A stretch of DNA of 64,000 bases from Bacillota bacterium (GTDB lineage: Bacteria; Bacillota; Sulfobacillia; DUSP01; DYEP01): assembly GCA_040755615.1 (NCBI GenBank), contig JBFMAL010000008.1, positions 4,693 to 68,692 of the forward strand, read 5' to 3'. Numbering within the stretch: the stretch's first letter is position 1; every line of letters starts with the position of its first letter. Below, piece by piece: positions 19,140 to 35,434 of this stretch. The translations under genes were made by a program, and so were the position numbers. The notes below the pieces were generated by a model that saw nothing but the letters and a program-made list of their open reading frames with translations, ran no database searches and was not told where the DNA came from.

Positions 19140-20225
19140 ATGAAACAACTCCTACTGGCGTTCATCCTATTTTTTGTACTCTCAACTTCGGCAAGCGCGT
19201 CAGTGGTTCTCGGACCCGGTTCGCGTGGTGACGGCGTGCGCGAACTTCAGTCCTGGCTAAAGGACTGCGGGTTTTACTCAGGCACGGTCGATGGCATATT
19301 TGGACCGAGGACGCAGCAGGCGGTAAAGGAGTTTCAAAAAAGCGCGGGTGTTGCAGTGGATGGGTTGGTCGGGGAGGAGACCATGCGCGCGCTCAACGAG
19401 CGCTTAAAACGCGACCTGGTTCAAAGAGGAGTTTACGTAGTGAAAAAGGGAGAGACCCTCGCGAGCATTGCAGTGAAACTGGGGATCGACATGGACGCGC
19501 TCGCCCGTGTGAATAACCTAGTAAACCCTAACCGTATTCTCGCCGGTCAAGCATTAATACTGCCTGGTAATGAGCAGACGACCGACGAGCACATCCAACA
19601 AACTCCACCGGAGCCCGCCGCAGAGCCCAAGGTAGCGGGATCAAAGACCATCGGCATGGTCGCACTCACATTTAACGACGGGCCCTATGCTTCCACGACC
19701 GCGCGTATTCTTGACATCCTGAAGGCGCATGGTGTGCCCGCGACCTTTTTTGTAGTGGGAAAGAACCTCCAGGAGCTGCCCCAGATCGGAGAAAGAATTG
19801 TTAAAGAAGGGCATGGCATCGCCAATCACACTTGGTCGCACCGCCCCTGGGAAAGACTCGGTATAAACGAGATAAGGAAGGAAATACGGGAAGGGGCACG
19901 AGCCATTGAGCAAATTACCGGTATTAATACACGACTATTCCGTCCGCCGTTTGACCTGCCGCCACCAGGAATGGTAGAATTCTTGAAATCTGAAGGCGTG
20001 CAGATTGTCTTGTGGTCAAACGTGGCGGTGAGGGATTACCCCGCGCCGCAAAACCCCGATTATTTCGTAACCAAGCTTGTAGAGTCATGTTTAAATGGCT
20101 CTGTAATCATGCTTCATGATGGCCTTGAGTCTACCGTTTCCATGCTGGATGCCATACTTTCGGGACTATCAGAAAAAGGTCTGCGCGTTGTGAGGCTTGA
20201 GACAGTTCTGTCGCTCGCGGATTAG
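19140..20225 (+). CDS. Secreted polysaccharide (peptidoglycan) deacetylase with N-terminal peptidoglycan-binding and LysM domains
   Basis: Signal peptide. PG_binding_1-like GDGVRELQSWLKDCGFYSGTVDGIFGPRTQQAVKEFQ. LysM YVVKKGETLASIAVKLGIDMDALARVNNL. NodB motifs LTFNDGP and HTWSH. Confidence 0.85.
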   Translation: MKQLLLAFILFFVLSTSASASVVLGPGSRGDGVRELQSWLKDCGFYSGTVDGIFGPRTQQAVKEFQKSAGVAVDGLVGEETMRALNERLKRDLVQRGVYVVKKGETLASIAVKLGIDMDALARVNNLVNPNRILAGQALILPGNEQTTDEHIQQTPPEPAAEPKVAGSKTIGMVALTFNDGPYASTTARILDILKAHGVPATFFVVGKNLQELPQIGERIVKEGHGIANHTWSHRPWERLGINEIRKEIREGARAIEQITGINTRLFRPPFDLPPPGMVEFLKSEGVQIVLWSNVAVRDYPAPQNPDYFVTKLVESCLNGSVIMLHDGLESTVSMLDAILSGLSEKGLRVVRLETVLSLAD

Positions 20226-20267
20226 CCCCGAAGGATTTGACGCCGCCAACATGATCTTATGTATACG

Positions 20268-20295
20268 ATGAGCCGTGCTGTAGTACGGCTCATCA
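20268..20295. terminator. Bidirectional hairpin terminator between the convergent deacetylase and SASP genes
   Basis: Perfect 10-bp stem GATGAGCCGT / ACGGCTCATC with an 8-nt loop. A U-rich tract follows on the + strand (ATCTGGGTTT). Confidence 0.55.
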
Positions 20296-20310
20296 TCTGG
20301 GTTTAGTATA

Positions 20311-20547
20311 CTACTGAATAGGGTTGGCGTTCGCGAGAGCCCTCTCCGCATAGCGGATCATGACCTTTACCATGTTACCGCCAATGCGTCCCCCGATACG
20401 TCCACATTCCCTCGAAGTCATATCAGGCCAGCCTAAAGTCTCTATTTTCTGTCTCAACCCGAGTTCATCGGCAATTTCATATTTGAAAGAATCCAATACT
20501 TGCCTTGGCAACAGCTTTTTTGTTGGACTGAATTGAGCCATGAGCAA
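20311..20547 (-). CDS. ssp: Alpha/beta-type small acid-soluble spore protein
   Basis: 78 aa. KYEIADELGL... and ...GGRIGGNMVKVMIRYAERAL match the two conserved alpha/beta-SASP boxes. RBS GGAGGTGA. Confidence 0.85.
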   Translation of the reverse strand: MLMAQFSPTKKLLPRQVLDSFKYEIADELGLRQKIETLGWPDMTSRECGRIGGRIGGNMVKVMIRYAERALANANPIQ

Positions 20548-20735
20548 GTCACCTCCTCGAGTATATTGTAGCTTTTGGCGCGTTTGTGTATGTTAGTAGT
20601 ATTTGAATGTACTGGTCGTGTAAATTAAAGGCGTAATTCCAAGCTTTAAAACCTCAAAGTAGTTGTGCTAAAATGAATGCTGGCAGCCAGAGATTTGATA
20701 ATGCCGCCAGCAAAGATTTGCCGGGAGGCGTAATT

Positions 20736-20930
20736 ATGCCAATTTATGAGTTTCGTTGCACAAATTGTCACGAGAAATTTGAATTGCTGTGTAAACACGG
20801 TGAACAGATTGTGTGTCCAAATTGTGATAGCCGGGAAGTCGTGAAGATGTTCTCCACGTTTTCCTCTCCCTCCGTGCGCACCTCCTCATGCAGCAGCTGT
20901 AAGTCGAGTTCGTGCTCAGACTGTAAGTAA
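20736..20930 (+). CDS. FmdB-family zinc-ribbon protein with Ser/Cys-rich C-terminal tail
   Basis: MPIYEFRCTNCHEKFELLCKHGEQIVCPNCDS (CxxC...CxxC) followed by SSCSSCKSSSCSDCK. RBS GGGAGG. The upstream extension to 20673 is rejected. Confidence 0.75.
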   Translation: MPIYEFRCTNCHEKFELLCKHGEQIVCPNCDSREVVKMFSTFSSPSVRTSSCSSCKSSSCSDCK

Positions 20931-21026
20931 CTCCCACAGGGCACCGCCCTAGCAGACGTGCAGGTACTTGCGGGTTTCTGTAGAAAAGGGTAATGGGTAC
21001 AAAAAGGGTGAAGTGAGGGATTACTA

Positions 21027-21341
21027 GTGAGGATCGAGCGACACCCTATTCTGACCTTCAGCAAGGGCCCCAAGGTTCAATTCTACTTCGAAGGTGAGCC
21101 ACTGGAAGGATACGAAGGAGAACCCATCGCAGCTGCGCTCCACGCTGCAGGAATCAGATGTCTTCGTCATAGCCCGGTCAGGAACAGGCCTCGGGGCTTC
21201 TTTTGTGCTATTGGCAATTGTTCCTCCTGTCTCATGGTGGTTGACGGGATCCCCAACGTCAGGGTATGCGTTGAGAAGCTCCGCCCGGGCATGGACGTGC
21301 GGCGCCAGAAGGGGAAAGGTGATCTGCATGTTTCGGACTGA
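21027..21341 (+). CDS. [2Fe-2S]-binding small subunit (HcnA / sarcosine-oxidase-alpha N-terminal-like) of a multi-subunit FAD dehydrogenase
   Basis: 104 aa. ...PRGFFCAIGNCSSCLMVVDGIPNVRVC... is typical of HcnA / OoxB-N 2Fe-2S domains. GTG start. The 3' end overlaps the next gene by 14 nt. Confidence 0.8.
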   Translation: MRIERHPILTFSKGPKVQFYFEGEPLEGYEGEPIAAALHAAGIRCLRHSPVRNRPRGFFCAIGNCSSCLMVVDGIPNVRVCVEKLRPGMDVRRQKGKGDLHVSD

Positions 21342-22419
21342 ACTGGCCGTGGTCGGAGCAGGTCCGGCAGGCCTTTCAGCAGCGCTCGCCGCTGCCGAGT
21401 GCGGCGTCGCGACGCTGATTGTAGACAACGGCAGCACCCCCGGCGGCCAACTTGTAAAGCAGACGCACAAGTTTTTCGGGTCAAAGGCCGAGCACGCAGG
21501 CACCAGGGGGATAGATATCGCACGCCAGCTTGCCGATGAACTGCAAAGAAGCCCGGAAGTGGAGTACTGGCGTGAAAGTACGGCGCTCGGCTACTACGAG
21601 GACAGAGTATTGCTGGTTGAACTCGAAGGCCGCGCGCTCCCGGTGCGCTGCGACGCGTTGGTGGTCGCCACAGGCGCAGCGGAACGTCATGTGGTATTTC
21701 CTGGCAATGATTTGCCTGGCATCTACGGGGCCGGAGCGGTGCAAACGCTCATGAACGTCCACGGCGTAAAGCCCGGCGAGCGCGTGCTTATGGTGGGCGC
21801 CGGGAACATCGGTCTCATCGTGTCGTACCAGCTGTTACAGGCCGGCGTTCAAGTGGCGGCCGTGGTGGAGGCGGCCCGGTCCATTGGCGGCTACGCGGTC
21901 CACGCATCCAAACTTCGCCGCCTGTCTGTCCCCATTCTCACATCTCACACCGTAAAAGAAGCGCACGGGCATGAGCAGCTCGAACGCGCGACTGTATGGC
22001 GGGTTGACGAGACGTTTACCGGTGTGCCGGGGACTGAAATCGAGTTCGACGTTGACGTGATCTGCCTTGCGGTGGGGCTCTCACCGGTTACAGACCTGCT
22101 GTGGCAGATTGGGTGCAAGATGAAATATGTCCCGGAACTCGGCGGACACGTACCGCTCAGAAATGAGAACATGCAGACGACTCGGAGCGAGGTGTTCGTA
22201 GCGGGAGATGCATCAGGCGTGGAGGAGGGCTCCTCCGCAATGGTAACGGGCAGGCTGGCAGGCTATGCAGCAGCCGCTCACCTCGGCAAATGCCCCGACT
22301 TTGAAAGCAGAAAGAGAGAGTGCCAGCGCGCGCTGGATGCGCTCAGGGCAGGTCCTTCCGGACAGAAGGTGCGTACCGGACTCTCGACCGTCGTCTGGAG
22401 GGAGGCAGTCACGTGTTGA
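21328..22419 (+). CDS. FAD/NAD(P)-binding oxidoreductase subunit (HcnB / proline-dehydrogenase-complex alpha-like)
   Basis: 363 aa. Two Rossmann GxGxxG motifs (AVVGAGPAGLSAA and LMVGAGNIGL) plus ...FVAGDASG.... Pyridine-nucleotide-disulfide oxidoreductase fold. Confidence 0.85.
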   Translation: MFRTELAVVGAGPAGLSAALAAAECGVATLIVDNGSTPGGQLVKQTHKFFGSKAEHAGTRGIDIARQLADELQRSPEVEYWRESTALGYYEDRVLLVELEGRALPVRCDALVVATGAAERHVVFPGNDLPGIYGAGAVQTLMNVHGVKPGERVLMVGAGNIGLIVSYQLLQAGVQVAAVVEAARSIGGYAVHASKLRRLSVPILTSHTVKEAHGHEQLERATVWRVDETFTGVPGTEIEFDVDVICLAVGLSPVTDLLWQIGCKMKYVPELGGHVPLRNENMQTTRSEVFVAGDASGVEEGSSAMVTGRLAGYAAAAHLGKCPDFESRKRECQRALDALRAGPSGQKVRTGLSTVVWREAVTC

Positions 22420-22907
22420 AGAGTACAGGTATCCCCGAGAGAGAGCAGCTGGACGCGGTGACTCCCCCCGCGTCCCGCAGGAGCAAAGGACCTGTGGCGG
22501 TGTTTGAATGCTTCGAACGTATACCCTGCGATCCGTGCTATCACGCATGCAAGCATGGGGCGGTCAAGGAGTTTTCAGACATCTGTGATGTGCCGGAAGT
22601 GGACTTTGAGCGCTGCACCGGGTGCGGGCTGTGCGTGGTGGCATGCCCTGGCCTTGCCATATTCATCCTGGACGAAACCCCTTCCGATCACGCTGTGGTC
22701 GGGATACCTTACGAAATGCTCCCCGTGCCGGAACCAGGACAGGAGGTCACGCTGCTTGACCGCGAAGGCCGTGACCTGGGAAAGGGACAGGTGAAGCAGG
22801 TAAGCCGGCCGGGCGTGGGAAGCGGAACGCTGCTGGTGAGGCTTAAGATACCGAAGGAGACGGTAGGAGACGTGAGGAGTTTTAGGCTGGAGCGGGGTAT
22901 GTCATGA
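22413..22907 (+). CDS. Ferredoxin-like Fe-S subunit (4Fe-4S CxxCxxCxxxCP)
   Basis: About 164 aa. CDPCYHACKHGAV and CTGCGLCVVACPGLAI. GTG at 22413 after GGAGGGAGG. It overlaps the upstream stop. Confidence 0.7.
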   Translation: MLKSTGIPEREQLDAVTPPASRRSKGPVAVFECFERIPCDPCYHACKHGAVKEFSDICDVPEVDFERCTGCGLCVVACPGLAIFILDETPSDHAVVGIPYEMLPVPEPGQEVTLLDREGRDLGKGQVKQVSRPGVGSGTLLVRLKIPKETVGDVRSFRLERGMS

Positions 22908-23179
22908 GCAATGATGCGATCATTTGCAGGTGCGAGGACATTCTGCTCTCGGACATAAGGCGGCTTCTGGACGCAGGGCTCACTACGTTGGACGAGATCA
23001 AGAAGTTCTCAAGGTGCGGTATGGGACCCTGCCAGGGCAGGACATGCAGGTCGCTGTTGCTTGGGGAGATCGCGAGGTACCGGGGGATTCGCGTTCACGA
23101 CCTTGAGCCAGGGCGCTTTAGACCACCGGCGAAGTCCGTTCCAATCAGCGCTTTCCTCGAAGGCGGGGAGGAGCCGTGA
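22904..23179 (+). CDS. BFD-like [2Fe-2S]-binding small subunit
   Basis: 91 aa. ICRCEDILLSDIRRLLDAGLTTLDEIKKFSRCGMGPCQGRTC is the BFD-like [2Fe-2S] domain signature (CxC...CxxxxC). ATGA overlaps on both sides. Confidence 0.75.
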   Translation: MSNDAIICRCEDILLSDIRRLLDAGLTTLDEIKKFSRCGMGPCQGRTCRSLLLGEIARYRGIRVHDLEPGRFRPPAKSVPISAFLEGGEEP

Positions 23180-24321
23180 CGCGCGCAGATATAGTAATAG
23201 TTGGCGGCGGGATAGTGGGGTGCTCCATCGCGTATCACCTGGCGCAACGTGGCATGCGCCGCGTCGTGGTGCTTGAGCGCTCACACATTGCTTCAGGGGC
23301 TACCGGACGTTGCGGCGCCGGTGTACGGATGCAGTGGGGCACAAAGCCCAACTGCCTCGTGATGAAAGAAAGCATACGCATGCTTGAATGCTTGGAGCAG
23401 GAACTCTGCTATCCTCATGGAATAGCTTTCAAGCAAAAGGGATACCTGTTTTTGGCCCACTCCGAAGCCCAGCTGGTGCAGTTTCAGAAAAACGTCCAGC
23501 TTCAAAACAGCCTTGGCATTCCGTCAGAGATCGTGGGCCCGAGGGAGATGAAACGCATCGCCCCGCTTCTTGATACCACAGGGATCGTGGGGGGCAGCTA
23601 CTGTTCAAAAGATGGACATTGCGACCCGTTCCACACCACCCGCGCCTACGCACTAGCTGCGATGAGGCTCGGGGTGACGATACTTCAGCACACCGAACTG
23701 CAGTCGGTCACGAAGAGACCCGAGGGCACGTTCAGGTTGAGCACAAGCGCAGGAGAGATGGAAGCGCCTGTGCTGGTCAACGCTGCCGGGGCTTGGTCAG
23801 GCCATGTAGGAAGGATGCTCGGTGTCGAGCTACCGGTGTACTCGGAGCGTCACCAGATACTCGTGACCGAGCAAGTCGAGCGGGTACTGGACCCGATGAT
23901 CATCTCGCTTCACGAAGGGCTGTACTGCCAGCAGACCCCGGATGGCAGTTTTATAATGGGGCTCGGCGATCCAAACGAGCCCAAGGGCATTGATCACGGG
24001 CACACGTGGCAGTTTCTCTTCGCAATATCAAGAAAGATCGCCCGGCTCTTGCCAGGCATCGCTGGAGTACGCATACTCAGGCAGTGGTCCGGTCTATACA
24101 ACATGTCTCCCGATCGCCAAGCGATTCTTGGAGCCGTGGACGATGTCCCCGGGTTCTACGTGGCTTGCGGGTTCAGCGGGCACGGCTTCATGATGGCTCC
24201 GGCCATATCCGAATCGATGGCAGATATCATTCTCGGGGGCACGCCGAGGGTGCCGATAGACGTGTACGGTCTTGACCGGTTCAAGAATGGAAATCTGTTT
24301 TATGAACCGTCGGTGGTCTAA
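23176..24321 (+). CDS. FAD-dependent amine/amino-acid dehydrogenase subunit (DAO family; HcnC / SoxB / proline-dehydrogenase-complex beta-like)
   Basis: 381 aa. N-terminal DIVIVGGGIVGCSIAYHLAQRG dinucleotide fold; GxGxxG...GATGR...; C-terminal ...GFSGHGFMMAPA... typical of DAO-family flavoproteins. Confidence 0.85.
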   Translation: MTRADIVIVGGGIVGCSIAYHLAQRGMRRVVVLERSHIASGATGRCGAGVRMQWGTKPNCLVMKESIRMLECLEQELCYPHGIAFKQKGYLFLAHSEAQLVQFQKNVQLQNSLGIPSEIVGPREMKRIAPLLDTTGIVGGSYCSKDGHCDPFHTTRAYALAAMRLGVTILQHTELQSVTKRPEGTFRLSTSAGEMEAPVLVNAAGAWSGHVGRMLGVELPVYSERHQILVTEQVERVLDPMIISLHEGLYCQQTPDGSFIMGLGDPNEPKGIDHGHTWQFLFAISRKIARLLPGIAGVRILRQWSGLYNMSPDRQAILGAVDDVPGFYVACGFSGHGFMMAPAISESMADIILGGTPRVPIDVYGLDRFKNGNLFYEPSVV

Positions 24322-24332
24322 TAATCACGGAG

Positions 24333-24758
24333 GTGAAGACGTTGAGACTTTCAAAAAGGGACGAACTCTGTTCGGGCTGCAGGAGCTGCATCTTGGTCTG
24401 CTCAATGGAGAACTTCCTGAAGGCAGACCCCACGCTCGCTGCACTCCGGATAAAGGGGCATTTTCCCGTTCCCGGGAAATATGAGGTGGTGCTTTGCGAC
24501 CAATGCGGGGAGTGCGAAAAAGCCTGCCCCACCGGAGCCATTTATGCCGACGGCGAAGCGTATCGCGTCAAGCCCGAAGAGTGCATTGCGTGCATGGCGT
24601 GCATCGAGGCCTGCCCGAAAGGCGCCATCTGGTTTAACCAGGCGCTGGGCGCTCCGGTAAAATGCGTGCTGTGCGGCGAGTGCGTGCGCTATTGCCCGCG
24701 ACAGGCCATCGTGGACGAGACCGGAGAAGTCAAGTGGGGAGGTGAACAGGCATGCTAG
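24333..24758 (+). CDS. Polyferredoxin (three to four 4Fe-4S clusters), partner of the downstream AOR
   Basis: CSGCRSCILVC, CDQCGECEKACP, CIACMACIEACP and CVLCGECVRYCP. Start is GTG at 24333 or TTG at 24342 (after GGAGGTG). Confidence 0.8.
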   Translation: MKTLRLSKRDELCSGCRSCILVCSMENFLKADPTLAALRIKGHFPVPGKYEVVLCDQCGECEKACPTGAIYADGEAYRVKPEECIACMACIEACPKGAIWFNQALGAPVKCVLCGECVRYCPRQAIVDETGEVKWGGEQAC

Positions 24759-26584
24759 GAGGGTACATGGGCAAGGGGCTACGCGTGAACCTTACATCGC
24801 GAAAGAGCTCCACGTTTGATATCCCCGAGGACTGGGCAAGGCGGTTCCTCGGCGGCCGCGGTTTCGCAGCTAAGATCCTTTATGACCAGCTGGATGCAGG
24901 CACCGACCCGCTCTCACCTGAGAACAAACTGGTAGTGGCCACAGGACCGCTCTCGGGGCTCTTCCTCCCGGGGAGCGGTAAGCTGACGTTTGCCTGCAAG
25001 TCTCCCGCAACAGGCGGGTACGCCGATGCCAACGTAGGCGGACATCTGGGGCCTGAGATCAAGTATGCCGGGTATGACGTGATCGTAGTTGAAGGAAAGG
25101 CGGCCGCTCCCTCGGTGCTGGTCATCGAGGACGACCGCGTGTCCATACGCGACGGCTCCCGCTACTGGGGGCTCGGTGCCATCGAAACAGAAAAGGCGTT
25201 GAAAGATGACCTCGGCGAGGCGTTCCAGTGCGCAGTCATAGGCCCCGCCGGCGAAAACCTTGTGAAGTATGCGTGCATATCGCATGACTTCGGCAGGCAA
25301 GCCGGCCGCTGCGGTGTGGGCGCGGTAATGGGCAGCAAGAACCTGAAAGCTATCGCAGTTTCTGGCACGCGGGCCATCCCGCTGGCCAAGCCGAAAGAAG
25401 CGCTGGAGAAGGGCAAACAGATGTACCTGTCGTGCTTCTCCAAGCCCGGGTTTTACGAGTGGACTCCCTACGGCACCGCGGGGGTGACCGACTGGGTGAA
25501 CGAGGTGGGCAGTTTCCCCACCAAGAACTTTTACACCGGCTACTTCGAGCACCACAAGCAAATCAACGGCCAGGCACTCAAAGAGCGGATCCTGGTCACC
25601 GATAAGGGTTGCTTTGGCTGTCCAATACCTTGCGGCAAGTACTCCCGCACGCGGTGGCAGGGCAAAGAGGTCATGGTCGAGGGTCCGGAGTACGAGACCA
25701 TCGCGATGCTGGGCGGTAACTGCTGCCTTAAGACTATTGAGGATGTGGCGTACGCCAACTACGCATGTGACGAGCTGGGCCTTGACACCATCTCTGCGGG
25801 CAATGTACTGGCCTTCGCCATGGAGTGTTATGAGAAAGGATTGCTCACCAGGGAAGAGGTGGGCCGAGAGATCAGATTCGGAGACCTTGAAAGCGTGGTA
25901 TTTCTGCTGTCGGAGATCGCAGCTCGCCGCGGCGTAGGCGCACTGCTTGCAGAAGGCGTGAAGGTCGCTGCCGAACGCATCGGACAGGGGTCTGAGCGAT
26001 TTGCTATCCATGTGAAGGGACTTGAAGTCTCAGGTTACGAGCCGAGGTACGCGCCTGCTATGCTGCTTGCGTACATGACCGCTGATGTAGGTGCCCACCA
26101 CAACAGGGCGTGGGCGATCACCTACGACGTAGCGGTGGGTAGAGACTCGCTTGAGGGAAAGGCGGAGAAGGTTATAGAGCTTCAGCACATAAGGCCGCTG
26201 TTTGACGCGCTCGGGCTCTGCCGCCTGCAGTGGGTGGAAATAGGATTCGAGCTGCATCACTACGGTGAGATCTTCCCGCTGGTCACGGGCATAGACTACG
26301 GTTGGGAAGACCTGATCCGTGCTTCCGAACGCATATGGAACCTGACGCGCCTGTTTAATATCAAGCATATCGCAGGTTTCGGTCGGAAGTATGACAGCGC
26401 TCCTCCGCGGTTCCTCGAGGAGCCTATGCCCTCAGGGCCAGTAGAAGGTAAACTCACTGGCGCAAAGAGCGCCGAACAGCTGCTGGACCGCTACTACCAG
26501 CTCAGGGGATGGAGCCCGGACGGCATACCTACGAAGCAAACGCTGGCTGAGCTAGACCTTATTGAGGAAGGCGCAGCATATTAA
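24752..26584 (+). CDS. aor: Tungsten-type aldehyde:ferredoxin oxidoreductase (AOR family)
   Basis: About 605 aa. AOR N-terminal ...GKGLRVNLT.... 4Fe-4S ligation motif DKGCFGCPIPCGK. Overall similarity to the AOR/FOR/GAPOR family. ATG at 24767 (after GGAGGG) is an alternative start. Confidence 0.9.
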   Translation: MLGGYMGKGLRVNLTSRKSSTFDIPEDWARRFLGGRGFAAKILYDQLDAGTDPLSPENKLVVATGPLSGLFLPGSGKLTFACKSPATGGYADANVGGHLGPEIKYAGYDVIVVEGKAAAPSVLVIEDDRVSIRDGSRYWGLGAIETEKALKDDLGEAFQCAVIGPAGENLVKYACISHDFGRQAGRCGVGAVMGSKNLKAIAVSGTRAIPLAKPKEALEKGKQMYLSCFSKPGFYEWTPYGTAGVTDWVNEVGSFPTKNFYTGYFEHHKQINGQALKERILVTDKGCFGCPIPCGKYSRTRWQGKEVMVEGPEYETIAMLGGNCCLKTIEDVAYANYACDELGLDTISAGNVLAFAMECYEKGLLTREEVGREIRFGDLESVVFLLSEIAARRGVGALLAEGVKVAAERIGQGSERFAIHVKGLEVSGYEPRYAPAMLLAYMTADVGAHHNRAWAITYDVAVGRDSLEGKAEKVIELQHIRPLFDALGLCRLQWVEIGFELHHYGEIFPLVTGIDYGWEDLIRASERIWNLTRLFNIKHIAGFGRKYDSAPPRFLEEPMPSGPVEGKLTGAKSAEQLLDRYYQLRGWSPDGIPTKQTLAELDLIEEGAAY

Positions 26585-26649
26585 CCGACTGGAGGGCCGG
26601 GGCCCCCAGAGGGTCCCGGCACGGCCCGCACAGGCCATGAGGTGAGATA

Positions 26650-26883
26650 ATGGACTACGTAAGCTTTACCATACACGGACACGCGCGGGAATACTTCCCG
26701 TCCAAAGAGCGATTCAGGCACAAGGTGACCGGTGAGACTACTGTGAGAAAGGTGCTTGAACATCTTGGTGTGAACCCGCTTCTCGTCATGTACGTCGTGA
26801 AAAACGGAAAGCGGGTCTCGCTTGACGATCCCATCACCGGAGGAGACGAAGTGGTGCTCATCACTCCGGCAGCAGGTGGTTGA
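26650..26883 (+). CDS. MoaD/ThiS-family ubiquitin-like sulfur-carrier protein (C-terminal Gly-Gly)
   Basis: 77 aa ending ...VVLITPAAGG. Small beta-grasp-sized ORF immediately after the AOR. RBS GAGGTGAGA. Confidence 0.75.
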   Translation: MDYVSFTIHGHAREYFPSKERFRHKVTGETTVRKVLEHLGVNPLLVMYVVKNGKRVSLDDPITGGDEVVLITPAAGG

Positions 26884-27136
26884 AGTCCGTGCGAGTATGT
26901 GACTGGCGGTAAAGAGGGTACATGGCATATCGCCCCTTCTTACGACCACAGACCCTTCACTCCTTGCGGGCTTGGTATCGCCGCTTTCGCCGTGAGTAAG
27001 GTGGCGACCGGACCGCTTTCACTTCACCCAGCCGGCAGTTGCTTCACGGAGAGGGTGTTCCACCGTCTGGATGTTCTCTCACTTGCGGCGTGAGCAAGAG
27101 GTCCGCAACTTGATTCAGGCAAGGAGACGATGCAAT

Positions 27137-28030
27137 TTGGAGCTTTCAAAGATTACTGAAGGAGTCTACGCCGTGCTGGGAAGCACGACTGTGGCGGGTG
27201 TCGTCTGTAACCCTGACAGAGAGGCGTTGCTTGTGGATACGGGCCTTGACGAGTCGGCGGCAAGAAAGCTCACCAGGATACTGGGTGAGGCAGGCATGGT
27301 GATACGGTGGATCTTCAACACTCACGCCCATGCCGACCATTTTGGCGGAAACCGTTTCATCGTGGAGCGCACAGGGGCGAAGGTGTACGCCCCGGCGCTT
27401 GAAGCTGGGGTGATCCAGTGTCCTGTGCTTGAACCGATGTACCTCTACGGCGGGGCCATGCCCCCACGAAACTTGCGGAACAAGTTTCTTGAGGCCGAAG
27501 CCTCGACAGTCACTGAGGTGGCATACCGTGGGCCGATGCGCATCGGGGGAATCGAACTTGAGGTCGTGCCGCTTCCGGGACACAGTATAAATCAGATGGG
27601 CTTGGCCCTGAAAGGAGTGTTATTCTGCGGTGACGCATTCCTCAGCGAAAGTACCATGGCCAAGCACGGCGTGCCTTTCAACGTGGACATCCAGGCGCAC
27701 CTTCGCACGCTAGATTTTCTCGCAGGGCAGGACATCACGCTGGTATGCGCACACGGCAGCATTTACAGGGACCCAAAGAGTATTATCGCTGCGAACCGGC
27801 AACGCGTGTATGAAACGGCAGACGCAGTGCTTCAGTTGCTCGAAAGCCCGTGCAAGACGGATGAGATCATGCGGCTCACCTGTGAGAAGTTCGGCGTCTC
27901 GATACAGGCGCCCAGCCAGTACTACCTGATGAAATGCGCAGTATCTGCCATCCTGACCTACCTTTTTAACCAGGGGCAGCTCTCGATGGCGGTTGAGCAG
28001 GGGACGCTGCTATGGCATAGGAAGACTTAG
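27137..28030 (+). CDS. MBL-fold metallo-hydrolase
   Basis: ...IFNTHAHADHFGGN... (HxHxDH), later ...PGHS.... Start assigned to TTG at 27137 after AAGGAGA. The start is uncertain. Confidence 0.7.
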   Translation: MELSKITEGVYAVLGSTTVAGVVCNPDREALLVDTGLDESAARKLTRILGEAGMVIRWIFNTHAHADHFGGNRFIVERTGAKVYAPALEAGVIQCPVLEPMYLYGGAMPPRNLRNKFLEAEASTVTEVAYRGPMRIGGIELEVVPLPGHSINQMGLALKGVLFCGDAFLSESTMAKHGVPFNVDIQAHLRTLDFLAGQDITLVCAHGSIYRDPKSIIAANRQRVYETADAVLQLLESPCKTDEIMRLTCEKFGVSIQAPSQYYLMKCAVSAILTYLFNQGQLSMAVEQGTLLWHRKT

Positions 28031-28054
28031 CCTATTACCGGGAGCTGATCGATT

Positions 28055-29038
28055 GTGAAAGTAGTTGTAACCGAGCACGTATTCACAGACCTCAACATCA
28101 CTGAAGAAGTGCTTGCGCCGACTGGGGCTGAGCTGGTGTTTGTGCCCGATCCGACTCCGGCCGTCGTGCTGTCGCATGCCAAAGACGCTGATGCACTGCT
28201 TGTATGCTGGACGCCCATAGGCAGGGAAATCATCTCAGGCCTTGAAAGGTGCCGTGCCATTGTCCGATTTGGCATTGGCGTCAACAACATTGATATTGCT
28301 TCTGCCACGTCCGCCGGCATTATCGTAGCGAATGTGCCGGATTACTGCATTGACGAGGTGTCCGACCACGCGCTGGCGCTTCTTTTATGCGCTGCCAGAA
28401 AGGTCATACCCATGGACAGGAGCGTCCGCAGCGGTACCTGGGACCACAGGCTGTTTTCGCCAGTTTTTAGGTTCCGGGGCAAGCGAGCGGGGCTTCTGGG
28501 CTTCGGCCGGATACCGAGGTGCCTTGCTGGGAAACTCAAGGCACTAGGCATGCAAGTAGTCGCATTCGACCCTTATGTAAAGTCCGAGGACGCCGCAGAT
28601 GCAGGGGTCTCTCTGGTTGGACTTGAAGAGCTGCTCCGTACCTCCGATTACGTCTCAATTCATGCCCCAGCCACGCCGGAGACGCGGCACATCATCAACG
28701 GAGCCACGCTGCGGATGATGAAACCCACGGCGATACTCGTTAACACAGCGCGGGGAGACCTCGTAGACCAGGTGGCGCTGGCAAAAGCACTGAAAGAAGG
28801 GGTAATAGCGGCAGCTGCGCTGGATGTGTTGTGGGACGAAGGCATAAGCCCGGATGACCCGCTGCTTGCATGTGACAACCTGATACTCACGCCTCACGCC
28901 GCGTTTTATTCTGAAGAATCGTCCGCGGAGCTCCAAAGAAAAGGTGCCGAGCAGGCGCGCATGGCACTTGAAGGTAAAGTCCCCGTCTATACGCTGAATA
29001 AGGAGATCGCGGAACGCTGGCTGAAGCGCTGGGGTTGA
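28055..29038 (+). CDS. D-isomer-specific 2-hydroxyacid dehydrogenase (NAD-binding; PGDH / CtBP-like)
   Basis: 327 aa. ...AGLLGFGRIPRCLAGKLKALGMQVVAFDP is the NAD Rossmann segment. ...NTARGDLVD... and ...LTPHAAFYSEES are the catalytic Arg/Glu/His region. Confidence 0.85.
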   Translation: MKVVVTEHVFTDLNITEEVLAPTGAELVFVPDPTPAVVLSHAKDADALLVCWTPIGREIISGLERCRAIVRFGIGVNNIDIASATSAGIIVANVPDYCIDEVSDHALALLLCAARKVIPMDRSVRSGTWDHRLFSPVFRFRGKRAGLLGFGRIPRCLAGKLKALGMQVVAFDPYVKSEDAADAGVSLVGLEELLRTSDYVSIHAPATPETRHIINGATLRMMKPTAILVNTARGDLVDQVALAKALKEGVIAAAALDVLWDEGISPDDPLLACDNLILTPHAAFYSEESSAELQRKGAEQARMALEGKVPVYTLNKEIAERWLKRWG

Positions 29039-29083
29039 CGTCCAGCGTTTATCTCCAAGAAACAAGAATGCGAGGTGATTACC

Positions 29084-29464
29084 ATGTACATCACCCATCT
29101 GTCAAGTATCCCAGAGGAAAGCCTGAAACCCGGCGAAAACCCAGCGGTCGCCCCCGGTACGGTCCGGTGGCTGATCGCGGAGACTGACGGAGCGCCCACG
29201 TTTGAGATGAGGTGCTTCACGCTGAGGTCATGCGGCACCACCCCCTGGCACAGTCACCCGTGGGAGCACGAAGTGTTCGTCTTGTCCGGCAAAGGCTACA
29301 TCAGGAGCGAAGTGGGCGAGCAAGAGCTCCGTCACGGCCATGCCGTGCTGGTAAGTCCCAGCGAGTGGCACCAGTTCAGGGCGGGTGAAGAGGGGGAGTT
29401 CACCTTCATCTGCATAGTTCCAAAAGGCACGCGGGCCTGCTCCCTGGATCCGGGCAAGCGCTAG
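29084..29464 (+). CDS. Cupin-domain protein
   Basis: About 126 aa. ...WHSHPWEHEVFVLSGKGYI...GHAVLVSPSEWHQF is the cupin two-His motif pair. ATG at 29084 after GAGGTGA. Confidence 0.7.
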   Translation: MYITHLSSIPEESLKPGENPAVAPGTVRWLIAETDGAPTFEMRCFTLRSCGTTPWHSHPWEHEVFVLSGKGYIRSEVGEQELRHGHAVLVSPSEWHQFRAGEEGEFTFICIVPKGTRACSLDPGKR

Positions 29465-29644
29465 GCCGGACCGCCTTCGCAGGTTGTCCGCAAAGACAAA
29501 TCGGTGTCTGCAAAGTTGGCACAGATAACAAAGGATATAGATGGCGGGCGATAGAAGTCTGATACGATTTGAGCCGGAGGGAGGAAATCCGTTGGGGTAG
29601 ACAGCGAGTATGGCAGGCTGCTTCACGTTGCGTTATGCGAGCCT

Positions 29645-30433
29645 TTGCACTTTCGTATTGAAACCGCGATCAATGAGATCCAGAAGAAATTCTTGGAATC
29701 CGAAAAGCCTGACGCCATACGGGCGGCTTCTGAGCACTCTGCGTTCTCCAGTCACCTTGAGGAGCTCGGCGTGAAGGTGGTTCGGATACCCCCCGCAAAA
29801 GCCCATCCATATCAGGTGAACACGAGAGACATAGGCGTGTCGGGGCCAGACGGCGTGGTGCTGGGCAAGTTCAGGTTCGATATAAGGCGGGGTGAAATAG
29901 ACATTTCTGAGCGCGCTCTATCTCAGGCAAACGTGCGCATCGTGGGCCGAACGACGCGCTGCTTCGAGGGCGGGGACTTTGTGTACATAGGTCCTGGTAA
30001 GGCCGCGCTTGGCGTGGGGGTCAGGACAGACCCGGATGTTGTAGAAGAACTTACCCGCCTACTTCAAGTTGACATTGTGACAGTGTCTTTTGCTGAAGAA
30101 TTCCTTCATCTTGACATGGTGTTTAACTGTGTCGCCCCGGGCATCTGTGTGCGCTGCCCTGATGCTCTGCCCGGCGACTTCCTTTCCTACATTGATTCGC
30201 TCGGATTCGATTCCATTGAAGTGACAAAGGAGGACGTGTTTAACCACGCATGTAACCTCCTTGCACTCGCTCCCTTTCACGTGGTCGCACCGAGGGAACA
30301 CCCGTATGTGACAAAAGCTCTGCGCGCTCGCGGGGTCCGCGTGGACGTGATCGACCTCACCGAAATCACAAAAAGCGGTGGAGGGCCTCGCTGCATATCT
30401 TTCCCGATCGCCCGGGAACCGTGTAGCACGTGA
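29645..30433 (+). CDS. Pentein-fold amidinohydrolase resembling N(G),N(G)-dimethylarginine dimethylaminohydrolase (DDAH) / amidinotransferase family
   Basis: FEGGDFVYIGPG...GVRTD, LHLDMVFN and C-terminal KSGGGPRCISFPI (catalytic Cys) align with DDAH motifs. The reading frame is open upstream to 29573 (..VDSEYGRLLHVALCEP.., conserved N-terminal region) with no canonical start codon; the annotated TTG start is probably too short. Confidence 0.7.
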   Translation: MHFRIETAINEIQKKFLESEKPDAIRAASEHSAFSSHLEELGVKVVRIPPAKAHPYQVNTRDIGVSGPDGVVLGKFRFDIRRGEIDISERALSQANVRIVGRTTRCFEGGDFVYIGPGKAALGVGVRTDPDVVEELTRLLQVDIVTVSFAEEFLHLDMVFNCVAPGICVRCPDALPGDFLSYIDSLGFDSIEVTKEDVFNHACNLLALAPFHVVAPREHPYVTKALRARGVRVDVIDLTEITKSGGGPRCISFPIAREPCST

Positions 30434-30599
30434 GTTTACGGCCAAGGTATTCTCTGGCCGCATGACTTTGTCGAAATAGGATACGCACCGCGCCGCTAAC
30501 CCTGCTTGATTAGCGGTACGGAGGGGGTGGGACAGTACACGGACATCTAGGTGACAGCGTCTCTTTTCCGGTTTGGAAAAACTCAATGGAGGTGGTCCA

Positions 30600-31958
30600 A
30601 TGAACAAAGGTAAAGGCGGTTATAAGGTCGAGCCGGCTCGCTTTTGGAAGTTCTTGATCCCGTCCGTTATCGGTATTCTCATCTATATCGTACCCCTTCC
30701 ATGGAAAGGCGCCTTCAGCATCGTCGTAGGCATGATGGCGGACACGCTAGAAAAGACTTTCTCCAATGTAGTCCCTTACTTCATTACGACTGTGATCTGC
30801 CTGTCAGCCCTTATTGCGCTTTTTACTCGCCTGGCAAAACCCAAGGCGATCCTAGACAATGCCTACCTGAACAAGCTGTTCAACACAACGCCGTTCTGGC
30901 TCACTTTCAGGTGCGTAGGCGCGGTGTTCGCGGTCATGACATTGTTTAAGATCGGACCGGAGTTTATCTGGCACGCCAATACGGGCGGCCTCATGCTTCA
31001 TGTACTCTTACAGGTACTTACGTTCTGGTTCCTAGCTGCAGGCTTCTTCCTCCCGCTGCTCACGGACTTCGGAGCCATGGACTATGTGGGCACGCTGCTC
31101 CGGCCCGCATTCCGACCCCTGTTTACCATCCCGGGGAGGTCGGCCATCGATGCAACGGCGTCCTTCATCGGCAGCGCGCCCATCGGCGTGGTGATCACCA
31201 ACCGCCAGTACGTGGGCGGGTTTTATACCCTGAGAGAAGCGGCTGTCATCGCGACGTGCTTCTCAATCGTATCGCTACCCTTTAACCTGGTTGTGGCAGG
31301 ATTCCTCGATCTTATGCACCTATTCCCTAAGTGGTACCTGACGGTCATCATCGTCACCGTGGTGAACGCCATAGTCCTCCCGAGGATCTACCCCCTCAAC
31401 AAGAAGCCAGATTCATACCACCCAGTCACAGGAAAACGCGTTGAGGAGGAGATCCCTGCGGGCCTCTCTATGAACGCGTGGGCTCTGCAGAACGCAATGA
31501 AGAGGGCTGACGAGGTAGAGTCCTGGATGCACGTACCGAGAGAAGGCACAAAGATCGTGCTCGACGTGTGGTTCGGAGTGGAGCCCTTGGTCATGGCCTG
31601 GGGTACCATCGCCCTAGTCATCGCTGAGTTTACCCCGTTCTTCAACTGGATCTCTACGCCGTTTGCCTATTACTTACAGCTCTTGCAGGTACCTGAAGCG
31701 GTGGCAGCTGCACCGGCAGCTCTTGTAGGTTTTGCCGACATGTTCCTCCCTGCCATCCTTATCAAGGGGCTGCCAGAGCTGACCAGGTTCATCCTAGGCG
31801 TGCTGTCTATCACCCAGCTGATCTACATGACGGAAGTAGGCGCCATCCTGCTTCAGTCTGATATGAAGATCTCGTTGTGGGACCTTGTCGTCATATTCCT
31901 CGAGAGAACCATACTATCGCTGCCCCTCATCACTCTCGCAGCGGCTATACTGCTTTGA
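30600..31958 (+). CDS. YjiH/YjiG-type nucleoside-recognition (Gate) domain membrane protein, putative substrate permease
   Basis: About 452 aa, polytopic. Architecture matches the YjiH family (two Gate domains), which is often adjacent to amidohydrolase genes. ATG at 30600 after GGAGGTGG. Confidence 0.7.
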   Translation: MNKGKGGYKVEPARFWKFLIPSVIGILIYIVPLPWKGAFSIVVGMMADTLEKTFSNVVPYFITTVICLSALIALFTRLAKPKAILDNAYLNKLFNTTPFWLTFRCVGAVFAVMTLFKIGPEFIWHANTGGLMLHVLLQVLTFWFLAAGFFLPLLTDFGAMDYVGTLLRPAFRPLFTIPGRSAIDATASFIGSAPIGVVITNRQYVGGFYTLREAAVIATCFSIVSLPFNLVVAGFLDLMHLFPKWYLTVIIVTVVNAIVLPRIYPLNKKPDSYHPVTGKRVEEEIPAGLSMNAWALQNAMKRADEVESWMHVPREGTKIVLDVWFGVEPLVMAWGTIALVIAEFTPFFNWISTPFAYYLQLLQVPEAVAAAPAALVGFADMFLPAILIKGLPELTRFILGVLSITQLIYMTEVGAILLQSDMKISLWDLVVIFLERTILSLPLITLAAAILL

Positions 31959-31986
31959 AAACCAAACCTGCTAGCTAATAGAGAAC

Positions 31987-32016
31987 AAAAGCTCCCGGAA
32001 CACGGGGGCTTTTGTC
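31987..32016 (+). terminator. Rho-independent terminator after the permease gene
   Basis: AAAGCTCCCG-GAACA-CGGGGGCTTT hairpin followed by TTTTGT. Confidence 0.55.
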
Positions 32017-32315
32017 GCTTAGAATTCAGAGGCAAGTTAGTGCAATGTAAAAGGTACGAACCGCGTGACTTTCGGTGCACGTGCGCTCGCACGCAGCCGT
32101 GCACTCACCTCACGCGTGCCCACTCTTGATTACGAGAATAGAGAAAGGTGCGCATCACGTTGAAAGGATGCCTGCAAGCTCTGGCAGGCTCTTGTTGTGT
32201 CAATCCACGGTCATGAGAGAAACAAGCCGCGCCCGGGAACGACGCAGCCCGCGTTCACATGGAGGAACACAACGCTATTTGAAGAAGTTATCATAATAGG
32301 AGGGAGGGAGACCGT

Positions 32316-34043
32316 GTGTCCATCAGTGTGCAAGAAGCCATGCTGCTTGAGCCTTTTCGTCGAGCTCGGTTGATTGCAGGGCAGGGCGGATTGGACCGGC
32401 TGATCAGGTCTGTCACAGTTATGGATACGCCCGATATAGCCAACTGGCTGAAGGGTAACGAGCTGCTCCTCAGCAACATATTTGTCATCCGCGATGATCC
32501 CAAGGCGCAGGTCGCCCTTATCAAAGAGATCGTCAACAAGGGTGCTGCGGCGCTCGGTATAAAGCTGAAGCGGTTCGTTGACAGCATCCCACAGGAAATG
32601 ATTGAACTAGCAGACGAGCTCTGTCTTCCCATTATTGAAATGCCTGTAGACGTCGCGTGGATCGACGTAATCACACCAGTGCTTGGCGAGGTCTTGAACA
32701 GGCAGCTCACCGCGCTCGAGCGGTCAGAAGAGATCCACCGCAGGTTTACGTCAACAGTGTTAAAGGGCGGAGGGCTATCCGCCATTGCGGACAACCTGGC
32801 CGAACTGATCAGGTTTTCGGTGACAATTACTGACGCGGCGTTCACTGTGTTGGCGGAAGCTGGCGCAGGCGCGGCCGTACCGGGCGGGTTCGTGCCTCTT
32901 GGTGATTTGGTAAGACATCTTGAAGAAGCTACCGAAGTGAAGACACCGCTAGGCCACAGCTTCTTCAGGGTAAGACTGAATGGCGTCGATTGTCTGTGCT
33001 GTCCGGTAAAGGCAGAGCAGGACCTCTACGGCTACCTGCTAGTGTGGTTGCCCGCAGAGGCGGAGGTGACCGAACGAGACACAGTGGCCATAGAGCACGG
33101 GCTCACCGTCACCGCACTGGAGATGGTGAAACGCCAGGCCGTCTCCGAAGTGGCGCGGAGATTTCAGAACAACTTCATCCTTGATCTTCTCACAGGCAAC
33201 ATGGAGTCGCGCGAGACAGTCATAGGTAGGGGTAAATCGTTCGGCTGGAATCTTGAGGTCCCATACTGGCTTATGATACTTGACATTGACGAGTTTGAGC
33301 GATTCTACCTGAATCAGACCAGAGCTGACGATCACCGGGCACAGAGAGTCCGGGAACAATTCGTGAACAGCGTAAGACGGGCGCTGGTGGATGAAGGGTT
33401 TGGCGAAGAGGCTATGACAATGGATCTGAGCGACAGCGTCACGGTGCTGCTGCCGAAGAAAGATGAACGATGTGACTGCAAAAGTATTGCCTCACGGATC
33501 AAAGACCGCGTGACCCGGGACATGAAGGAAGTCACCGTCTCAGCAGGGATAGGTCGCTTTTACCCGGATATCATGGACTTGAAGCGCTCTTACCGGGAAG
33601 CTAAGCAGGCGCTGACCCTGGGGCGTGCGGTTTGGGGGAGAAACTCAGTGATCCACTTCGATGACCTTGGTGCATACCGCGTGCTTTGCTCCATAACCGA
33701 CCGGGAAGAGTTGCTGGCGTTTCATCACGAGACCATCGTGCCGCTACTTCAATATGACGAGAAAACAGACAGCGACCTCATACGAACGCTCGAAACCTAC
33801 TTCAGCTGCCAAGAGAATATCAAGGCGACGGCGCAGAAGATGTTCATCCACCCGAACACCGTGCGCTACAGGCTGAACAGAATCTCGGACCTGGTGGGCC
33901 TTTCGCTGGAAAGGAGCGAGGATCGGCTGAATCTCCAGATCGGGCTGAAGGTGCACCGCCTGCTCGGCGGCAAACCCCGTGCCTTGTCACAGTTCACTAA
34001 CCAGGACGGGGAATCTTTGGCGAAAAGCACAAAGGAAGCTTGA
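32316..34043 (+). CDS. PucR/CdaR-family transcriptional regulator (C-terminal PucR HTH)
   Basis: 575 aa. C-terminal ...TLETYFSCQENIKATAQKMFIHPNTVRYRLNRISDL is the PucR_C HTH signature. GTG start after GGAGGGAGGGAG. Confidence 0.85.
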   Translation: MSISVQEAMLLEPFRRARLIAGQGGLDRLIRSVTVMDTPDIANWLKGNELLLSNIFVIRDDPKAQVALIKEIVNKGAAALGIKLKRFVDSIPQEMIELADELCLPIIEMPVDVAWIDVITPVLGEVLNRQLTALERSEEIHRRFTSTVLKGGGLSAIADNLAELIRFSVTITDAAFTVLAEAGAGAAVPGGFVPLGDLVRHLEEATEVKTPLGHSFFRVRLNGVDCLCCPVKAEQDLYGYLLVWLPAEAEVTERDTVAIEHGLTVTALEMVKRQAVSEVARRFQNNFILDLLTGNMESRETVIGRGKSFGWNLEVPYWLMILDIDEFERFYLNQTRADDHRAQRVREQFVNSVRRALVDEGFGEEAMTMDLSDSVTVLLPKKDERCDCKSIASRIKDRVTRDMKEVTVSAGIGRFYPDIMDLKRSYREAKQALTLGRAVWGRNSVIHFDDLGAYRVLCSITDREELLAFHHETIVPLLQYDEKTDSDLIRTLETYFSCQENIKATAQKMFIHPNTVRYRLNRISDLVGLSLERSEDRLNLQIGLKVHRLLGGKPRALSQFTNQDGESLAKSTKEA

Positions 34044-34102
34044 CTGCAGTCCGAGAAAATCACGATAGCTTCTTTTTTTCTTTGCAGAACTGGGGGTTGG
34101 AT

Positions 34103-35278: not shown

Positions 35279-35399
35279 AGCGCTTCGCAAACCCTGGACG
35301 TTCCGTCTTGTAATTGAGACATGCTGTAAGCAGCCTTTGAGTTCTCCGTTAGGGCGCGTCCATTTTCGCAGATATGAGACGCACGCATAAGAAACGCCA

Positions 35400-35434
35400 G
35401 CATCGGGCAGCTAACGCCTGATGCTTCCTTTTTG
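35400..35434 (+). terminator. Intrinsic terminator after the aminotransferase gene
   Basis: GCATCGGGC / GCCTGATGC stem (9 bp, one G-U) with a 7-nt loop, followed by TTCCTTTTTG. Confidence 0.55.

Follow-up and report, generated by a model that had tools for sequence, protein, structure and literature searches.

What would bring an amino-acid dehydrogenase and a tungsten enzyme of the aldehyde:ferredoxin oxidoreductase (AOR) family into one run of genes? The question is raised by positions 21027-26883 of the window, the whole 64,000-nucleotide (nt) stretch of Bacillota DNA analyzed here, where eight co-directional genes on the + strand (g1 to g8) encode a five-subunit flavoprotein dehydrogenase (g1-g5) and an AOR module (g6-g8). 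We propose that these genes form a catabolic operon that would convert L-proline to L-glutamate in two steps, with the AOR oxidizing glutamate semialdehyde, which forms from Δ1-pyrroline-5-carboxylate (P5C), to glutamate. In doing so it would reduce ferredoxin and displace an NAD-dependent dehydrogenase. This is our preferred answer, held with about even confidence, and we infer the substrates of both enzymes, their electron acceptors and the metal from sequence.

In the first step, g1-g5 would act as a heteromeric iron-sulfur flavoenzyme in which g5 oxidizes proline to P5C and the electrons reach g2, the FAD/NAD(P) module, by way of the [2Fe-2S] clusters of g1 and g4 and the pair of [4Fe-4S] clusters in g3. 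P5C would open spontaneously to glutamate-gamma-semialdehyde, and a two-subunit tungsten AOR (g7 catalytic, g6 small) would oxidize the semialdehyde to glutamate and pass low-potential electrons to ferredoxin. The AOR would thereby replace the NAD-dependent glutamate-semialdehyde dehydrogenase that related operons carry, and g8, a MoaD-like sulfur carrier, would support synthesis of the AOR cofactor. The features of the region are as follows.

21027..21341, + strand: g1, small [2Fe-2S] subunit, HcnA-like (Pfam Fer2_4, 5e-28)
21328..22419, + strand: g2, FAD/NAD(P)-binding oxidoreductase, alpha-subunit core (Pfam Pyr_redox_2, 9e-32)
22413..22907, + strand: g3, ferredoxin-like protein with two [4Fe-4S] motifs, gamma-like (Pfam Fer4)
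22904..23179, + strand: g4, BFD-like [2Fe-2S] / SO_alpha_A3 protein, delta-like (Fer2_BFD, 8e-10; SO_alpha_A3, 9e-10)
23176..24321, + strand: g5, DAO-family catalytic flavoprotein, beta subunit, probable L-proline dehydrogenase (Pfam DAO, 1e-79)
24333..24758, + strand: g6, AorA-like small AOR subunit, four [4Fe-4S] (four CxxCxxCxxxC motifs)
24767..26584 (alternative start 24752), + strand: g7, tungsten-type aldehyde:ferredoxin oxidoreductase, catalytic subunit, assigned to the formaldehyde:ferredoxin oxidoreductase (FOR) clade (AFOR_N, 1e-80; AFOR_C, 1e-131)
26596..26620, + strand: GC-only 10-bp hairpin in the g7-g8 spacer, without a U-tract
26650..26883, + strand: g8, MoaD/ThiS-fold protein with a Gly-Gly C-terminus (Pfam ThiS, 3e-8)

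The open reading frame (ORF) calls of the window agree exactly with the layout described in an earlier, sequence-only reading of this DNA: eight genes, overlaps of 14, 7, 4 and 4 nt at the g1/g2, g2/g3, g3/g4 and g4/g5 junctions, and 11 nt between g5 and g6. Its domain assignments were likewise all recovered by Pfam and NCBIfam, together with the CxxCxxxC motif of g7 and the Gly-Gly end of g8. Its claim that all eight genes are translationally coupled stands only in part, as strict coupling holds for g1-g5 and is probable for g6-g7, whereas a 65-nt gap separates g7 from g8. The g7 start at 24752 would overlap g6 by 7 nt and the start at 24767 leaves an 8-nt gap behind a better AGGAGG site; the latter is the more probable. 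The terminator scan called no terminator-like site in the g5-g6 gap, and we infer that g1-g8 are co-transcribed. Across 20200-28200, promoter and terminator counts equaled the shuffled expectation and are uninformative on transcript boundaries. No terminator-like site was called at the spacer hairpin, the 76 nt around it (26580-26655) have a folding energy of -31 kcal/mol and a modest z-score of -1.4 relative to shuffled sequence, and the region 3' of g8 folds no better than shuffles. The hairpin is not convincing as a terminator and might instead serve for processing or stability.

In a bacterial form with split alpha, the five-gene dehydrogenase very probably corresponds to the alpha-beta-gamma-delta L-proline dehydrogenase (PDH) of archaea, and as such would oxidize L-proline to P5C. 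The best PDB match of g5 is 1y56_B, the beta subunit of the Pyrococcus horikoshii enzyme (282 bits, 6e-83), with lower scores for dimethylglycine dehydrogenase (151 bits), SoxB (136) and glycine oxidase (101), in keeping with the archaeal PDH subunit set that the sequence-only reading had named. Aligned with 29 homologues, g5 has 79 invariant columns in common with them. The other subunits can be placed on the SoxA profile. The first, g1, corresponds to the N-terminal piece of SoxA and of archaeal PDH alpha (profile positions 17-99); it contains Cys60/65/68/81 and begins with a GTG behind GAGGGA. The core, g2, covers positions 170-490 (162 bits), with SoxA alpha and, weakly, 1y56_A as its PDB matches. 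The 91-amino-acid (aa) g4, which overlaps its neighbors by 4 nt at both ends, covers positions 522-595 and contains Cys8/10/38/43. Thus g1, g2 and g4 are consecutive parts of the profile, reaching only positions 17-595 of 996, and g3 is inserted between g2 and g4. This 164-aa protein carries the motifs Cx5CxxCxxxC and CxxCxxCxxxC and a C-terminal domain of ~80 aa, and its position is kept in nearly all homologous loci. By cysteine pattern, the operon encodes [2Fe-2S] clusters in g1 and g4, two [4Fe-4S] clusters in g3, four in g6 and one in g7.

Archaeal PDH complexes occur in an alpha-beta-gamma-delta form (Thermococcus profundus, P. horikoshii) and an alpha4beta4 form (PDB 1Y56). The operon resembles them in its DAO-family beta and in an alpha composed of a beta-grasp N-domain and a nucleotide-binding fold; it differs in that alpha is split into g1 and g2 and that the host is a bacterium. 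We know of no archaeal PDH operon reported with an AOR. Kawakami et al. 2004/2005 reportedly described the archaeal gene order as alpha, gamma, delta, beta, with a ferredoxin-like subunit of ~19 kDa and a small subunit of ~8-10 kDa. Our g3 and g4, which lie between the alpha and beta genes, are likened to that gamma and delta by size and position only. The N-domain of 1Y56 alpha has lost its cluster cysteines (PMC1949818), whereas g1 retains its [2Fe-2S] cysteines.

A true sarcosine oxidase or hydrogen cyanide (HCN) synthase was considered and rejected. Against the SoxB family model TIGR01373, g5 scores 191 bits where the cut-off is 529, its best structure is PDH beta, and the folate domain is missing: Pfam and NCBIfam searches of the operon found no GcvT, SoxD or SoxG domain, and the folate-binding C-terminal half of SoxA is absent. 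The building blocks themselves (Fer2_4, Pyr_redox_2 plus BFD-like, DAO) are shared with HcnABC, opine dehydrogenase, D-hydroxyproline dehydrogenase and SoxABDG. The operon departs from these enzymes in the extra 2x[4Fe-4S] protein g3 and in encoding the alpha pieces as separate genes, and from SoxABDG also in lacking the folate-binding domain, SoxD and SoxG.

The company that the five genes keep elsewhere points the same way. A scan with a beta-subunit alignment, one genome per species, gave 80 loci, whose flanking ORFs were clustered and then annotated. The order g1-g2-g3-g4-g5 recurs in 78 of them, in Bacillota, Thermotogota, Atribacterota, Izemoplasmatales, Synergistota and other groups. 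As the whole eight-gene unit also recurs in relatives (below), the observation is not a chance one. The commonest neighbor is L-glutamate-gamma-semialdehyde dehydrogenase, which adjoins the cluster in 27 of the 80 loci, usually 7-160 nt 3' of g5, though a few loci have it just 5' of g1. Two families unrelated to each other supply it: 14 loci have a TIGR01236 enzyme (780 bits, cut-off 614) and 13 a TIGR01237 enzyme (755-783 bits, cut-off 660). Other recurrent neighbors are a PrdR-like sigma-54 regulator (10 loci), a Xaa-Pro dipeptidase-like M24 protein (9 loci), other dipeptidases, and transporters for peptides or branched-chain amino acids. Such a neighborhood is as expected of an enzyme that takes proline to P5C and speaks against the family in general being specific for sarcosine or opines. 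Databases label the g5 homologues "sarcosine oxidase subunit beta" or "FAD-dependent oxidoreductase". The cluster also varies: a Synergistota metagenome-assembled genome (MAG) has two tandem beta-subunit genes (L060, 4924-7218), and in a Clostridiaceae MAG the g1 [2Fe-2S] gene has moved 3' of g5 (L030, 8131-11508).

The slot after g5 that holds the semialdehyde dehydrogenase in many of these loci is held in others by a polyferredoxin (polyFd) gene and an AOR gene. A polyFd-AOR pair lies directly after g5 at six loci of the genome sample (L005, L007, L016, L018, L023, L057) and, in a sample assembled from the AOR side, at L084, L085, L088, L097, L099, L128 and L134; no semialdehyde dehydrogenase was found near any of these loci. 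In L005 and L023 the slot AOR is a g7 orthologue (55% identical). In L007, L016, L018 and L057 it is another AOR of ~720 aa, 28-29% identical to g7, whose best structures are of AOR type rather than FOR type; L018 is the cultured Acidaminobacter hydrogenoformans DSM 2784. A further locus, L011, has an AOR of the ~720-aa type upstream and a semialdehyde dehydrogenase downstream. At L057 the pair stands between g5 and a prolidase/dipeptidase/signal-peptidase/PepD/Opp block that in its Sedimentibacter-like sisters follows straight after g5. In a neighbor-joining tree of beta subunits, AOR-linked loci occupy several separate positions among dehydrogenase-linked and unlinked ones. Judged from these sequences, two AOR clades appear to have been recruited to one slot, repeatedly. 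Sequence extends 2.5 kb or more downstream in 62 loci, of which 19 have a dehydrogenase directly 3', five have an AOR and none has both; pooled with the loci of the AOR-first scan, the comparison is 0/14 against 19/57 (Fisher p = 0.015), which is suggestive of mutual exclusion between AOR and semialdehyde dehydrogenase. The idea of the sequence-only reading that the AOR stands in for an NAD-dependent P5C dehydrogenase thus gains comparative support, from dehydrogenases that adjoin 27 of 80 clusters, lie directly 3' in 19 of 62 and share their slot with AORs.

If so, the operon would perform the two-step proline-to-glutamate chemistry that we take it to share with PutA or with PutB/PutC (RocA), using enzymes of which neither is homologous to the PutA domains. 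The proposed difference from PutA and RocA lies in the second step, where a tungstopterin enzyme reducing ferredoxin would act in place of a member of the aldehyde dehydrogenase (ALDH) superfamily reducing NAD+. We propose the AOR as a non-homologous functional replacement of the ALDH-superfamily semialdehyde dehydrogenase, not as a member of that superfamily.

Does the AOR itself suit such a role? Its small subunit, g6, matches AOR partner subunits in the PDB, namely 8c0z_C (AorA), 9mqx_E and 6x6u_B (WOR5 beta). It is an AorA-type subunit and not the separate polyferredoxin carrier of the sequence-only reading; that reading's description of the pathway as driven entirely by ferredoxin is not established, given the NAD(P)/FAD fold of g2. 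Against the chains of 8c0z, g2 gave no match at E <= 1e-8. The catalytic subunit, g7, scores highest with P. furiosus FOR (1b25, 492 bits), followed by AOR (1aor, 451), WOR5 (276) and BamB (217). Placement of g7 in the FOR clade of the AOR/WOR family is by best structure match, with no full family tree, and is accordingly putative. Its [4Fe-4S] ligands are the CxxCxxxC cysteines 282, 285 and 289 plus the distal Cys485, and the equivalents of FOR Cys284/287/291/491, Glu308, Tyr416, His437, Arg481 and Arg492 are all conserved. At the positions of FOR Arg481 and Arg492, both residues are Arg throughout the g7 clade and Arg plus Lys in the second PDH-linked clade; P. furiosus AOR has Thr and a gap there. 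A role of FOR in amino-acid metabolism was reportedly suggested by Roy et al. 1999. The product proposed here, glutamate, is 2-aminoglutarate. With those pocket residues, g7 looks suited to an acidic C5 aldehyde. FOR has its lowest Km for glutaric dialdehyde (C5), was crystallized with glutarate and prefers C4-C6 acid- or aldehyde-substituted aldehydes, and formaldehyde is perhaps not its native substrate, according to a 2025 review (PMC12096430). AOR-family enzymes have broad substrate ranges (PMC12096430, PMC6365974). Tungsten in the g7 active site and ferredoxin as acceptor are predicted from family membership only, and YdhV-type enzymes within the AOR/WOR family use molybdenum (PMC12096430). 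A sub-clade of the slot AORs (L005, 8274-10136; L023, 11594-13447; L128, 3076-4929; L134, 7986-9839) reads CFACPMATGKxC, a sequence that has another residue in place of the third cysteine of CxxCxxxC and in which the third ligand would come four residues later (CxxCx7C); its [4Fe-4S] ligation may be altered.

Among characterized enzymes, P. furiosus FOR (1B25, 1B4N) is the best match of g7 and has the same conserved cluster and pocket residues. FOR is a one-subunit homotetramer, whereas the operon adds genes for an AorA-like subunit and a MoaD-like protein. These additions recall AorABC with AorD/AorE (Aromatoleum aromaticum, Moorella thermoacetica) and the alpha-beta enzymes WOR5/ASOR, which share the four-cluster polyferredoxin, the tungsten large subunit and the MoaD-like gene. 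Here, in contrast to AorABC, no AorC-type FAD subunit lies beside g6 and g7, the catalytic subunit belongs with the FOR clade and not with AOR sensu stricto, and the module is fused to an amino-acid dehydrogenase operon. The MoaD-like AorD and AorE of aor operons are probable maturation factors for the tungsten cofactor (PMC6365974), and g8 is presumed to be the sulfur carrier for synthesis of the AOR pyranopterin cofactor.

Many homologues share 60-70% identity with g7, and their surroundings bear on its substrate. Several come from contigs equal in length to those of beta-subunit homologues, a hint that the two genes lie together there. A metagenome scan with an AOR alignment recovered 80 loci at 47-68% identity. 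Of 71 loci, 66 have the polyFd gene directly 5' of the AOR; a MoaD-like gene comes after the AOR in 13-20 loci, and a distant DAO-family gene stands directly 3' of the AOR in 10 of 60, with PDB scores that are ambiguous on the question of proline versus N-methyl substrates (118 bits for 1y56_B, 108 for dimethylglycine dehydrogenase). PutA is encoded directly 5' of the AOR in L116, L129, L131, L137 and L160 and 3' of it in L095. One locus (L091) carries trans-4-hydroxy-L-proline dehydratase HypD (1217 bits, cut-off 1100) with its activase. Further neighbors are MttB-family methyltransferases (often two), a corrinoid protein, a pterin methyltransferase, RACo, BCCT and OpuAC transporters, and an enolase-superfamily protein; loci of an apparent quaternary-amine or proline-betaine type are L091, L098, L121, L129, L131, L136, L137 and L160. 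Three unrelated P5C-forming enzymes therefore lie beside the g7 clade (the five-gene complex, PutA and HypD), and the common theme of these contexts appears to be proline, hydroxyproline and their betaines. The loci of the quaternary-amine and proline-betaine type, where PutA and a DAO-family gene are also seen, may encode an anaerobic betaine-to-proline-to-glutamate pathway with a tungsten enzyme.

The fused arrangement itself is kept in close relatives. The closest, L166 (AOR 94% identical), matches the window in all eight genes and in those that lie downstream, and L167 (GCA_964417635.1, AOR 70% identical) retains g1-g8 and the synteny upstream of them, with different genes downstream. We take g1-g8 to be the conserved unit because L167 keeps these eight but not the genes beyond them. 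The beta subunit of the window, like that of L166, sits on a long branch of the beta tree and is 48-53% identical to all other AOR-linked betas; the window AOR is 54-70% identical to other beta-linked AORs, that is, closer than the betas. By this measure the dehydrogenase seems to have evolved faster in the window lineage. Divergence of beta and AOR in linked loci correlates weakly (Spearman 0.34, from non-independent pairs), a correlation unable to separate old linkage from repeated capture.

We favor oxidation of glutamate semialdehyde as the role of the AOR because of the shared slot, the two AOR clades recruited to it and the proline and peptide context of loci such as L057, and because g7 has FOR-like pocket residues and a search of the 64-kb window, and of the window only, found no Aldedh-family, semialdehyde dehydrogenase, PutA or MttB homologue. 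A number of observations weigh against it. An AOR adjoins only ~8% of five-gene clusters, and in the unbiased genome sample the mutual exclusion amounts to 0/5 against 19/57 and is not significant (p = 0.31). Seen from the AOR side, only 7 of the 80 loci have the five-gene cluster upstream, and in the loci with PutA the AOR would be redundant, as PutA contains a semialdehyde dehydrogenase domain of its own. In L168 (Candidatus Fermentithermobacillus), polyFd-AOR-MoaD and the five-gene cluster lie apart on one chromosome. In L135 (1-17800), the flanking synteny of the window is kept (SurE, histone-deacetylase-family, DUF3792, patatin) without g1-g5; there polyFd-AOR (66% identical) is followed by a 2-hydroxyacid dehydrogenase and MoaD, with deacetylase and small acid-soluble spore protein (SASP) genes listed as missing. 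Since L135 has the synteny and not g1-g5, the five-gene cluster was gained or lost at this chromosomal site. The substrate specificity of the long-branched g5 could have shifted. The argument from the pocket leans on FOR Arg481 and Arg492, which we assume to hold the distal carboxylate, as Hu et al. 1999 reportedly found. Both modules are known in bacteria from genes alone, and the nearest characterized enzyme to g7 carries the name of formaldehyde.

That enzyme name leads to a rival that we consider unlikely, the second option of the sequence-only reading, in which g1-g5 or a partner flavoenzyme N-demethylates sarcosine, N-methylproline or dimethylglycine and the FOR-clade AOR removes the formaldehyde, making formate and reducing ferredoxin. 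Apart from the closest solved relative of g7 being a formaldehyde:ferredoxin oxidoreductase, the absence of a GcvT-like folate domain (SoxA positions 17-595 only) means that free formaldehyde would be released. The AOR clade often lies within quaternary-amine demethylation loci (MttB, corrinoid, pterin methyltransferase, RACo, BCCT, OpuAC), and L097 and L099 join a divergent five-gene cluster (beta 40-41% identical) and polyFd-AOR to MttB and BCCT; yet demethylation of the MttB type gives the methyl group to a corrinoid and yields no formaldehyde, and no MttB or other methylamine gene was found in the window. The DAO flavoproteins directly after the AOR in 10 of 60 loci, with their near-equal scores for PDH beta and dimethylglycine dehydrogenase, would suit this account; g5, in contrast, is far under the SoxB cut-off and closest to proline dehydrogenase, and the genes linked with the five-gene cluster are those of semialdehyde dehydrogenases, PrdR-like regulators and prolidase-like proteins rather than those of one-carbon metabolism. 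Formaldehyde has also been doubted as the native substrate of FOR (PMC12096430).

Somewhat less probable again is that polyFd-AOR-MoaD is a self-contained, mobile, broad-spectrum aldehyde scavenger, read through from the dehydrogenase genes by chance. Chance alone hardly accounts for the repeated capture of one slot and the 11-nt junction: two AOR clades recur in the exact slot of semialdehyde dehydrogenases, the g5-g6 gap has no terminator-like site, and the fused unit is kept between genomes whose betas are only ~50% identical. The module is nevertheless near-invariant (polyFd in 66 of 71 loci, a MoaD-like gene often next) and occurs in many unrelated contexts, with ~90% of AOR-clade loci lacking the five-gene cluster; L135 retains flanks and AOR module without g1-g5, L168 has the two modules separate, and the breadth of AOR-family substrates (PMC12096430, PMC6365974) would fit a scavenger. 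Against this, the other contexts of the clade (PutA, HypD, proline-betaine-type genes) also center on proline and P5C. We regard as very improbable a reductive direction, in which reduced ferredoxin lets the AOR turn glutamate into the semialdehyde and the flavoenzyme turns P5C into proline, ATP-independently, as an osmolyte or electron sink. By our own estimate, redox potentials averaged over the two steps would permit it, and enzymes of the AOR family are able to make aldehydes from acids under strongly reducing conditions, but this reaction is slow and requires low pH or very low potential (PMC6365974). The neighbors at related loci, moreover, are catabolic (prolidase-like proteins, peptide transporters, PrdR-like regulators, semialdehyde dehydrogenases), and no biosynthetic proline genes lie nearby.

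Oxidation of glutamate semialdehyde by the AOR, our preferred reading, admits a bolder version, which we regard as improbable. The AorA-like g6 could wire the tungsten subunit into the iron-sulfur chain of the dehydrogenase to give one supercomplex that performs the four-electron oxidation of proline to glutamate. Electrons from the semialdehyde, direct or via ferredoxin, would then drive the uphill transfer from proline to NAD(P)+ at g2 by flavin-based confurcation, and glutamate semialdehyde would stand for the class of substrates that the FOR clade uses physiologically. An analogue of such confurcation is the pairing of lactate dehydrogenase/Etf with pyruvate:ferredoxin oxidoreductase in acetogens.

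Each of the gene families involved is already known, as is the polyFd-AOR-MoaD module. The function of the bacterial five-gene cluster and its pairing with an AOR as a P5C dehydrogenase substitute appear to be undescribed: a full-text literature search found no paper on the former and none that connects an AOR with this dehydrogenase complex, with proline or with P5C; the sequence-only reading likewise knew of no characterization of the pairing. The physiological role of the FOR branch is unsettled (PMC12096430), and the operon offers a concrete candidate substrate in P5C/glutamate semialdehyde. If the proposal is true, it describes a tungsten- and ferredoxin-dependent variant of a very conserved step of amino-acid catabolism, and would explain how strict anaerobes oxidize proline with low-potential electrons saved for H2 or Rnf-type energy conservation. 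It would likewise reveal what the five-gene cluster does, which is common across Bacillota, Thermotogota, Atribacterota and other phyla and is routinely mis-annotated "sarcosine oxidase", and tungsten dependence would join the factors that govern peptide and proline fermentation.

Finally, the genes on either side of the operon deserve mention. A SASP gene lies a short way upstream in the window, which indicates that the host is a spore former. The gene for a small Zn_ribbon_8 (FmdB-family) protein (20673-20930, same strand) ends 96 nt 5' of g1; the sole promoter-like match of the region precedes it, and the transcript may begin with this gene. Downstream, a same-strand block (27071-36366) encodes an MBL-fold hydrolase, a D-2-hydroxyacid dehydrogenase, a cupin, a DDAH/arginine-deiminase-family protein, a Gate-domain transporter, a PucR-family regulator, a class I/II aminotransferase and an AguB-like CN-hydrolase (330 bits, cut-off 410). 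The block is kept in L166 and not in L167, and we rejected it as part of the operon unit, as L167 keeps the eight genes without it. The proline regulator of B. subtilis, PutR, is a PucR-type protein. The block could encode an arginine or guanidino-compound route that converges on ornithine, proline or the semialdehyde.

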